This document shows positions 22,006 to 24,648 of a stretch of DNA of 32,000 nt, in pieces. Under the pieces are notes generated by a model that was given only the letters and a program-made list of their open reading frames with translations, was not told where the DNA came from and did no database searches. A program made the position numbers and the translations under genes. Position 1 is the first letter of the stretch. Every line of letters starts with the position of its first letter. This DNA comes from Candidatus Thorarchaeota archaeon (lineage in GTDB: Archaea; Asgardarchaeota; Heimdallarchaeia; Hodarchaeales; Hodarchaeaceae): assembly GCA_048882505.1 (NCBI GenBank), contig JBHLRO010000030.1, forward strand, positions 1 through 32,000, written 5' to 3'.

Positions 22006-24648
22006 ATGAAAATAGTCAGGTCATCAACCTCAGAGATCTCATTTCTAGTTGAATCTATCGATATTCCGATGCAAGAACAGGATTTCATAATAATCACTGA
22101 ACCTGAGAGAGATGGGGAAGCCCCCCAGAAATATTTGGCTCAAATTGAAAAGCTGATTCAAAACAAAGAAGGTAGTATCACAGGCAGCGCAGCAATTTTG
22201 GGGATTATAAATGCCACAGACCACAGCCTATCTGCATGTCGATTTCCTATCTCAACAGATTCTCGTTTGGATCCGCCACCTGTCGGGCTTATTTCGAAAA
22301 TCCTTTCTTCACGGGACGATAGAGGAATATATCTGGGAGATGTAATTACCTCTGCAAACCAAAAAGAACCTTTTCTGATCACACCTAATTTTATTGAAAG
22401 ACATTTGTTATGTGTCGCAACTACGGGAGCAGGGAAGTCATATAGCATAGGGGTTCTACTTGAGGAAATTCTACTGAAATTTCCAGAAGCGGCTGTCATC
22501 CTGTTCGATATTCATAATGAATATTGGGGTTTAGCTCTTCCCAATGATGGCATCGAAGTAGAGCATTTAGACCACCAAGACTACTCTCCACGGGGATTTC
22601 TAGCCAATATCTTAATCTTCGAAAAAGAATCCCTAGGTCTGGGAAGAAAGTTCGATCTACCTCGCCTCCGTCGCTTGGTGGATCTAACTGCACCACAAGA
22701 AAATTCACTCGCTACGCTCCTGGATTCGCCATTGGTCCTGGAGGACTTGATTGAGAAAATCAAGCAAAGTGAGGATATGCATAGTGCCACGCGAGAGAAT
22801 TTAATTTCTAAAATTCGAAAACTTCGTACTCTAAGATTTTTTGATTCTGAATTACCATTGGATGCCCTAGTTCGATCCGGACAGGTGTCATTGGTACGTT
22901 TGGATCAATTTGTGGATGAACGGAACAGGGGTATTGTGGTTAATGAGATCCTTACCCAGCTGTTTGACCAGAAGATTCGTGGAGAACTTGACACCAAAGA
23001 AGTTATTATCGTTTGCGAAGAAGCACATCGTTTTTCCTCGGAAAATGATATTTTAGCTAGAATCTCACGTGAAGGCCGTAAGTTTGGAATCTATACCGTT
23101 CTTGTCTCCCAGCGACCAGGGGATCTTCCTGATGATATCATCGCCAACATGAACACGCTCATAGCACTTCGTGTTCGTTCAGATAAGGATCTGACGAAAA
23201 TCCGACTGATGGAGGGAATTCGGGCTGAAACGGTAGCGTTACTTCCACACTTGTCTCGCGGAGAAGCGTTAATTGTCGGGCTTCGACAAGGTACTTATCG
23301 CCCAATTAAGGTTTTAGTTCGCCCACGTATGAGTAAACATATCGACCCTCAAATAGATCATTTGCCTGATTCAATTCCTCGATATTCACCTCACAGACAG
23401 ATTGCCATTAGTCCTCCTGTTACATCAGTGCCCGAGGAGATTAAACCACCGCCCAGCTATTCCCCACCACTTATCGATGCCATCCAAGCTTTTGATTCCA
23501 AAGATTTGAGTAATCTTTTAGCGTGCGAACACGTTTTCATCCTACATAAGCGTACTGGACTTTGTCTCTTTGATCTTAGTGTGAGCATGCTAGAAATTGA
23601 TTCGCAACTCGTCTCGGGATTTTTAACAGCTATTTCAGGGTTTTTTCAGGAACTAAAGACCCAGAGTTCTGTAAAAGAAAGGCTCATTGTCCGAACTTTT
23701 GCTGAAGATATCGGCGATCGTGCTTTCGAGATAGTACAATGTGAGGGAGAATATACGGTAACTGCTGTCATCCTTGATCGCGCCCTCAAATATCTAAACA
23801 AGTTCAAACAACGAATAAGGGATTTTGTATATGTTTTTGAAAACACATTTCGGTCTCAGCTAAATTCAGCGAGTACCAGTGGTGTTATCATACACGAGGA
23901 TTTTGCCATGGCCATAAAGCTTCTCGACTACTTCATGGGCTTTTCCTTGCTCATTCCCCTGCGATTAGATCCTTTTCCACCAGAAATGGAATTTTCTGAT
24001 CTCTTAGGAATTATTGATTCTCAAATGGAAAGAGTAGCTAAATCTGAGGGTCTCTTTGCTGAGGAAATCGTCAATCAGTGTCTATTGGACTCTGAATATA
24101 ATCTAAGGGAAATTATCCAAGCTGTCCTCCTTTTCTTACAGAAAGGAATCTTGGTTCTGCAGGATAAAACACGAACATTACCTCCCTTTACAGAGACTTC
24201 TAGACCCGGAGATCTCATTGAATCCTCTCCAATCGAGGATATCAAGGTAAAGGAGGAACCTCTTCTCGAAAAGATGTCCGTTATCCCTCCTAAACTCTCT
24301 GAGGAAAACGAAACACTCCACATCGAGTGGTTGCCTGCTGTTATTGAAAAAATCACGCCAACTGCTCTACCAAATGCCTTGGTACCTGATATTTTAGAAA
24401 GAGATCTCATTTTTGAATCGGATTTAAGGATAAAAACGCATTCCACAAGAGTAGAAACCCTTTCAAAAACTGATCTCGATAAGTGGGCTCGAATTATGGA
24501 CACGAATGGCTTTATTTTGACTCAACAGAATGGAAATCCTCTTAGCGGGATAAAACTGATATTTGAATCAGAAGCGACGAAACTTGTCTGTTCGCTCGCA
24601 AAACTGAAGGACGGCGATTATATACTCATTCTTGGAGAAATACTATGA
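22006..24648 (+). CDS. HerA/DUF87-type P-loop ATPase fused to a longin-like domain and further C-terminal domains
   Basis: HAS-barrel-like N-terminus, ATTGAGKS, CEEAHRF, REGRKFG, VSQRP. Pro-rich linker, then HVFILHKRTGLCLF..DSQLVSGFLTAISGF (from ~23527). Confidence 0.8.
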   Translation: MKIVRSSTSEISFLVESIDIPMQEQDFIIITEPERDGEAPQKYLAQIEKLIQNKEGSITGSAAILGIINATDHSLSACRFPISTDSRLDPPPVGLISKILSSRDDRGIYLGDVITSANQKEPFLITPNFIERHLLCVATTGAGKSYSIGVLLEEILLKFPEAAVILFDIHNEYWGLALPNDGIEVEHLDHQDYSPRGFLANILIFEKESLGLGRKFDLPRLRRLVDLTAPQENSLATLLDSPLVLEDLIEKIKQSEDMHSATRENLISKIRKLRTLRFFDSELPLDALVRSGQVSLVRLDQFVDERNRGIVVNEILTQLFDQKIRGELDTKEVIIVCEEAHRFSSENDILARISREGRKFGIYTVLVSQRPGDLPDDIIANMNTLIALRVRSDKDLTKIRLMEGIRAETVALLPHLSRGEALIVGLRQGTYRPIKVLVRPRMSKHIDPQIDHLPDSIPRYSPHRQIAISPPVTSVPEEIKPPPSYSPPLIDAIQAFDSKDLSNLLACEHVFILHKRTGLCLFDLSVSMLEIDSQLVSGFLTAISGFFQELKTQSSVKERLIVRTFAEDIGDRAFEIVQCEGEYTVTAVILDRALKYLNKFKQRIRDFVYVFENTFRSQLNSASTSGVIIHEDFAMAIKLLDYFMGFSLLIPLRLDPFPPEMEFSDLLGIIDSQMERVAKSEGLFAEEIVNQCLLDSEYNLREIIQAVLLFLQKGILVLQDKTRTLPPFTETSRPGDLIESSPIEDIKVKEEPLLEKMSVIPPKLSEENETLHIEWLPAVIEKITPTALPNALVPDILERDLIFESDLRIKTHSTRVETLSKTDLDKWARIMDTNGFILTQQNGNPLSGIKLIFESEATKLVCSLAKLKDGDYILILGEIL

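Follow-up and report, generated by a model that had tools for sequence, protein, structure and literature searches.

A HerA-type ATPase fused to a longin-containing tail in Hodarchaeales, and other motors found on the same tail

The window, which is the whole stretch of 32,000 nucleotides that was analysed, carries a gene (P0001) in which a HerA-type ATPase is joined to a tail made of a longin domain, a winged-helix-like (wH) domain and a C-terminal domain (CTD). The features of this gene and of the cluster around it are collected in Table 1; trxB and a membrane protein gene are among its neighbours. Elsewhere in the window are genes for a RING-finger protein (721-2034, minus strand) and for Cdc48, the latter adjoining a PAC2 proteasome-chaperone gene (5058-8071, minus strand), and a gene for an SNM1/DRMBL-type metallo-beta-lactamase nuclease that is followed by one for a 745-aa HhH and MutS_V protein (15490-18844, minus strand).

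Table 1. Features of the fusion gene and its cluster; positions are those of the window unless a locus is named.
Feature	Position	Strand	Remarks
HAS-HerA-longin-wH-CTD fusion gene (P0001), 880 aa	22006..24648	+	ATG start, internal stops absent
HAS barrel, aa 1-102	22006..22311	+	Atlas match, alignment to nurA-linked HerA
HerA RecA-type motor and helical bundle, aa 103-445	22312..23340	+	R132, Walker A K144, D168, Walker B E338/E339, arginine finger R358, SQRP
Pro-rich linker, aa 446-495, little conserved	23341..23490	+	12 Pro per 50 aa
Longin domain, aa ~496-648	23491..23949	+	AlphaFold model and VIA
Winged-helix-like domain, aa ~649-725	23950..24180	+	Model, VIA, charge
Acidic linker, variable, aa 726-772	24181..24321	+	Alignment, charge
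CTD, alpha/beta, aa 773-880	24322..24645	+	Model pLDDT 91
Convergent membrane protein, 859 aa, about 11 predicted TM helices; terminal longin of the same family at 24718-25125	24715..27294	-	Syntenic in type A and type B loci
Secreted surface protein, 589 aa, C-terminal anchor	27623..29392	-	Conserved together with the fusion whichever motor type is present
Second surface-type protein of the cluster (start as called)	29521..31002	-	Also at type B locus L072
Tandem wHTH protein, probably starting beyond the window edge	31153..31998	-	Near the fusion in L044, L072 and L073
DUF853-type ATPase fused directly to CTD, without longin	L071:925-2667	-	Also at L140; genomes G022 and G023

The initial annotation had described a complete HerA/DUF87 motor followed by a Pro-rich linker, and both were recovered; Pfam DUF87 matches aa 108-318 (E 2.9e-17) with the catalytic residues all intact, and 12 prolines fall within aa 446-495. 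The best PDB and NCBIfam matches of the fusion protein are HerA helicases, at scores that miss the equivalog cut-offs for repair HerA in NCBIfam (98.7 bits against 970, and 73.6 against 800). The HAS barrel has an Atlas feature score of 0.94 (185 shared) and a TM of 0.83 to HerA clusters, and is without an insert of ~35 aa that is present in the nurA-linked HerA of the same genome, which is the closest paralogue of the window protein (29% identity over 435 columns of the head). In the alignment with 4d2i, K144, D168, E339 and R358 correspond to Sulfolobus K154, D176, E356 and R381, which are required for ATPase activity (PMC4351679). These four residues are invariant across 43 homologues, as are R222, R223, H259, T262, R263 and K269 of the helical bundle, a set of basic and polar residues which would fit a retained nucleic-acid channel. 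Judged from sequence, the head is a member of the HerA clade by its HAS barrel and the four essential residues.

Class features of VirB4, TraG and CedB were looked for in the protein and around its gene; neither a TM segment nor T4SS or Ced neighbours were found, and the profile scores lay far below their cut-offs (CedD 61 bits against 600, CedB 40 against 700 and VirB4 18 against 590). A VirB4/TraG identity, which had been the other assignment considered for this ATPase, was therefore ruled out by the HAS barrel together with the profile scores, in favour of HerA.

Sequence searches of the tail against Pfam and PDB gave no match. The longin fold, proposed initially from the letters of the sequence, was borne out by modelling; the AlphaFold model of aa 490-730 (pLDDT 79.9, pTM 0.80) has the order beta-beta-alpha-beta-beta-beta-alpha-alpha at aa 507-644 by DSSP, which is that of longins, and its best VIA matches among 48,161 PDB chains were synbindin (Z 10.6), Sec22 (10.2), the Loki longin 8yqg (10.2) and VAMP7 (9.3), with roadblocks at Z 6.6-6.8 in the same comparison. 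Foldseek on the tail model returned nothing under E 0.001; MglB ranked first, and AP sigma and SRX were also listed. The following domain is modelled as three helices with a short strand, and matches winged helices (MCM C-terminal, Nse1-3-4 and MukF) at Z 6.5-7.4, a middling score under the level that stands clear of chance. The net basic surface of a DNA-binding winged helix was not seen in any of the 43 homologues, in which the net charge of this domain is -1 to -16 (mean -6.7). Because it is net acidic in every homologue, it is more likely to be a module for protein contact than for DNA binding. A further domain had also been predicted at the end of the protein, with a size of ~130 aa; the domain is present, but comprises ~108 aa (773-880) behind an acidic linker. 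Fold searches with the CTD gave Z values of about 5 (SciW/PsbP-like, KA1-like) and an Atlas TM of about 0.5, which are too weak for a fold assignment and give no ground for calling the fold new. Among 83 genomes of the class the CTD is confined to Hodarchaeales, where it stands either behind a longin-wH or straight behind a DUF853-type ATPase.

The full fusion is present as a single copy in each of the 22 genomes of the window's genus (22/22), the records of which are labelled Hodarchaeales or Hodarchaeota and include Ca. Hodarchaeum mangrovi. It is thus neither a one-off nor an artefact, two of the outcomes that would have counted against the initial annotation; an assembly artefact is ruled out by the 46 homologues, which come from many sources. 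Relatives of the longin-wH unit form 675 cluster representatives, and Asgard genomes with a match number 334 of 400. In the top 150, large single-pass surface proteins that end in longin-wH are the majority, and the unit is a common pan-Asgard module that mostly forms the cytoplasmic tail of such proteins. The genome itself has 26 ORFs of the longin family, about 9 of which are membrane proteins. As the longin family is very common in Asgard archaea, the fusion is less singular than it appeared at first look. A profile search for longer homologues of the tail came back blank, yet it missed known members as well, so that little weight attaches to this result. In a distant Asgard family, L131:160-2175 and L132 encode a soluble, HEAT-repeat-like protein of ~670 aa with longin-wH at its end.

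The fusion gene and the membrane protein gene are convergent and do not form one operon. The longin of the membrane protein is preceded by a wH-like stretch. Within the genus it is about 80% identical, against about 55% for the longin of the ATPase. Homologues of the membrane protein are found in other Asgard lineages without an adjoining ATPase fusion, and the membrane gene does not follow the type A fusions of L074 and L148. A complex prediction for the two longins gave a score of 0.04, with the mark at 0.32, which counts neither for nor against binding.

A profile search showed that in other Hodarchaeales the same longin-wH-CTD tail occurs with other heads, often at the same locus. Type A, the HAS-HerA, is found in the window's genus, P0055 and P0050; type B is a HAS-less, DUF853-like ATPase (P0047, P0049, P0054, P0056, P0058, P0201 and P0202); type C is a third HerA (P0052); and P0053, P0057 and P0062 are tails without an ATPase. 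The tail-only gene P0062 (L076:2175-4906) converges on two tandem Arf/Ras-like GTPase genes. Heads of types B and C begin 30-60 aa before the Walker A motif, hence without a HAS barrel. At the type B loci examined, the convergent membrane gene is kept in all five and a surface-protein gene in four of the five, with mptE and PTPS upstream in three of the five. In L072 the eight-gene order of the window is repeated, with a tail 44-47% identical to that of type A and a head that cannot be aligned.

The heads form separate clades (A 100/99, B 100/99), whereas monophyly of the tails by head type is rejected (AU p 1.2e-4 and 1.7e-6). In the tree of the neighbouring gene, read with row L085_A left out, the A-headed genus has the B-headed L072 as its sister (100/100), and B heads are also carried by the syntenic loci that branch deeper. 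Because of this tree, the simplest reading is that the ancestor was of type B and that, in the window's genus, a HerA duplicate would have taken over from its head at the same locus. A recent horizontal transfer of the P0047 head is a less simple alternative to replacement in place; the heads of P0047 and P0056 are 61% identical and their tails 31%, and the pairing of a B head with a close tail, as in P0047, is known from one contig. Several of the tails are long branches, and the host taxonomy of the records with other heads is loose. In the sister family, three contigs of G022 carry a type B ATPase joined to the CTD without a longin, a gene for the tail alone and the gene of the membrane protein, and the ATPase-CTD is present in G023 as well; the CTD is detected in both at E about 1e-5, with motifs visible. 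The system may therefore be split and joined via the CTD, since G022 also has the tail-only gene. That the tail stayed as the motor was exchanged across distant subfamilies of FtsK-HerA suggests that the tail decides where the motor works, and this site is probably the cell membrane.

The initial annotation had also set the fusion apart from the end-resection locus, and this agrees with the arrangement of the genome. No nurA, mre11 or rad50 is found near the fusion, and nurA is absent from the whole window; the two nurA genes of the genome lie on contigs C16 and C1, each adjoining another herA, and one of these pairs shares an operon with genes resembling mre11 and rad50. Since both nurA genes adjoin different herA genes, the window protein is an extra HerA paralogue. 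The HAS barrel is required for NurA binding (PMC3326311), and as B and C heads are without it, NurA docking is not needed at the fusion locus. That this locus can be occupied by a motor which, to judge from its sequence, is HAS-less also speaks against a tail that serves NurA-coupled resection. With three FtsK-HerA heads on one tail, two of them without the HAS barrel, the tail seems to need a ring motor but not NurA.

The fusion is a new architecture built from known parts, and no paper describing a HerA-longin fusion was found in the literature searched, whose coverage leaves out most subscription journals. With the HerA of the HerA-NurA(-Mre11-Rad50) machine (PDB 4d2i, 9x1l; PMC4351679, PMC3326311) it has in common the HAS barrel, the RecA-type motor and the four essential residues; it differs in its shortened HAS barrel, its 430-aa longin-wH-CTD tail, the lack of nurA, mre11 and rad50 nearby and a score far under the equivalog cut-off. 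In other Hodarchaeales the head that this tail carries at the orthologous locus comes from the DUF853/YjgR-like, HAS-less relatives of HerA, but the head of the window protein falls outside their clade. The longin has the strand and helix order of TRAPPC4/synbindin, Sec22b, VAMP7, AP sigma/mu and the Lokiarchaeal roadblock-longin 8yqg (Z 9-10.6 over 115-138 residues), but at ~10% identity, with no Pfam model, a wH behind it and a ring ATPase attached. Known longin fusions are with GTPases, SNAREs, DENN, TRAPPC3 or two-component domains, whereas this one is with a ring ATPase. In crenarchaeal Ced DNA import (CedA membrane proteins, CedB and CedD ATPases; PMC11868833) an FtsK-HerA-type ATPase is likewise found next to a polytopic membrane protein; the Ced profiles match the fusion weakly (CedD E 8e-17, CedB E 2e-10, far under their cut-offs), the fusion has no TM anchor, its neighbour has no demonstrated homology to CedA, and Ced lacks a longin tail. 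The ParA-wHTH systems with profilin-longin-like domains (10.64898/2026.10.19.760177) also combine a P-loop NTPase with longin-like and winged-helix parts, but use ParA and not HerA, are encoded by two genes and not one, and are proposed to act in defence, whereas the fusion is fixed, single-copy and has an acidic wH.

The reading favoured here, at a little under an even chance, is that the fusion is a translocase which its tail addresses to a cell-envelope complex, with both partner and substrate putative. The protein would be a soluble ring ATPase of FtsK-HerA type that carries an address tag; its motor is predicted to form a hexamer and to translocate a polymer, most likely DNA; the movement of DNA or another polymer at the membrane is proposed by analogy with Ced (PMC11868833). 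At the inner surface of the membrane the longin tails would find longin partners, with the 859-aa neighbour as the first candidate, and this pairing would hold the motor at an envelope complex encoded by the same cluster. Docking at the membrane is proposed because the longin family lies mostly just inside the membrane and because longin/roadblock domains act as dimeric platforms (PMC10933270). The longin shared with the neighbour does not identify the partner, because of the 26 family members in the genome and the nine or so that are membrane proteins. The working mode could resemble that of CedB/CedD or of coupling-protein motors, anchored by a docking fold of eukaryote type and not by a membrane helix of its own. 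The CTD may link subunits, as in the sister family it is carried by a longin-less ATPase and by an ATPase-less tail. The more specific proposal of a Hodarchaeales envelope machine, in which the ring translocase is docked to the polytopic membrane protein by a longin-longin pair, the surface proteins of the cluster take part and the tail accepts any FtsK-HerA motor, is rather doubtful.

The longin could instead serve as the platform on which a small GTPase (Arf/Rag/Rab-like) turns the motor on or off, or the protein could be a GEF or GAP for such a GTPase, with the membrane neighbour incidental. To act as such a platform is the textbook function of longin/roadblock dimers (PMC10933270), and small GTPase genes are found near the fusion or the tail in L044, L074 and L076 and beside the free type B ATPase of this genome; however, none is among the window ORFs scanned, and chance proximity is to be expected with dozens of small GTPases per Asgard genome. 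The continued adjacency of the membrane gene would also be left unexplained, and a GTPase platform is considered unlikely. Less probable again is a role in DNA repair as a third HerA of that kind, with NurA still docked in trans on the HAS barrel and the tail limited to localising or regulating resection. The barrel and full motor are retained, the nurA-linked HerA is the closest paralogue, and genes for an SNM1-type nuclease and a MutS-V ATPase are located 3-6 kb upstream, but each nurA gene is already paired with a herA of its own, the ~35-aa insert is gone from the barrel, and the inferred ancestral motor of the locus was without the HAS barrel that NurA binding needs (PMC3326311).

Two further explanations are each given a slight chance. 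An anti-virus or anti-plasmid module, akin to systems of an NTPase, a wHTH and a profilin-longin-like domain, would have had its motor swapped as conflict genes typically exchange domains; ParA systems with a wHTH partner fused to a profilin-longin-like domain are described in the preprint of Li, Burroughs and Aravind (10.64898/2026.10.19.760177), which does not mention HerA, and the PADLOC HerA profiles that match the fusion do so only in the generic motor. The single copy in every genome of the genus and the fixed housekeeping neighbourhood are not the patchy distribution of a defence module, no effector gene adjoins the fusion as in Sir2-HerA, DUF4297-HerA and kin, and the wH is acidic. Neutral domain shuffling, by which ATPase genes came to lie in front of a tail gene and merged with it while the halves still work independently, is in keeping with the extensive lineage-specific shuffling of such domains in Asgard archaea (10.1101/2020.10.19.343400) and with the existence of tail-only genes. 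It is hard to square with three heads that all belong to the FtsK-HerA superfamily, as chance would not repeat one superfamily, or with a CTD found directly on type B ATPases as well.

The Hodarchaeales lineage is often placed beside eukaryotes. If the envelope-machine proposal is true, longins would act in this archaeal lineage as adaptors between motor and membrane, a use that preceded the one in trafficking. If docking fails, the fusion would be one more case of Asgard domain shuffling. The role of Asgard longins is open, as operons do not reveal their partners (PMC10933270). In the fusion a longin is carried by a soluble enzyme whose ATPase activity is easy to read out, and the adjoining membrane protein bears a longin too. 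The docking idea is directly testable, as the natural motor swap, in which heads are exchanged on a retained tail, provides ready-made controls.

Other ATPases are encoded elsewhere in the genome. G000:C1:438298-441363 (plus strand) encodes a DUF853-type ATPase of 1022 aa with a coiled coil and a Cys-rich zinc-finger tail, adjoined by a small GTPase-like gene. Paralogous VirB4-like DUF87 ATPases of ~720 aa are encoded at G000:C37:12534-14702 and C16:90893-93043, and their Walker B and C-terminal motifs look divergent.
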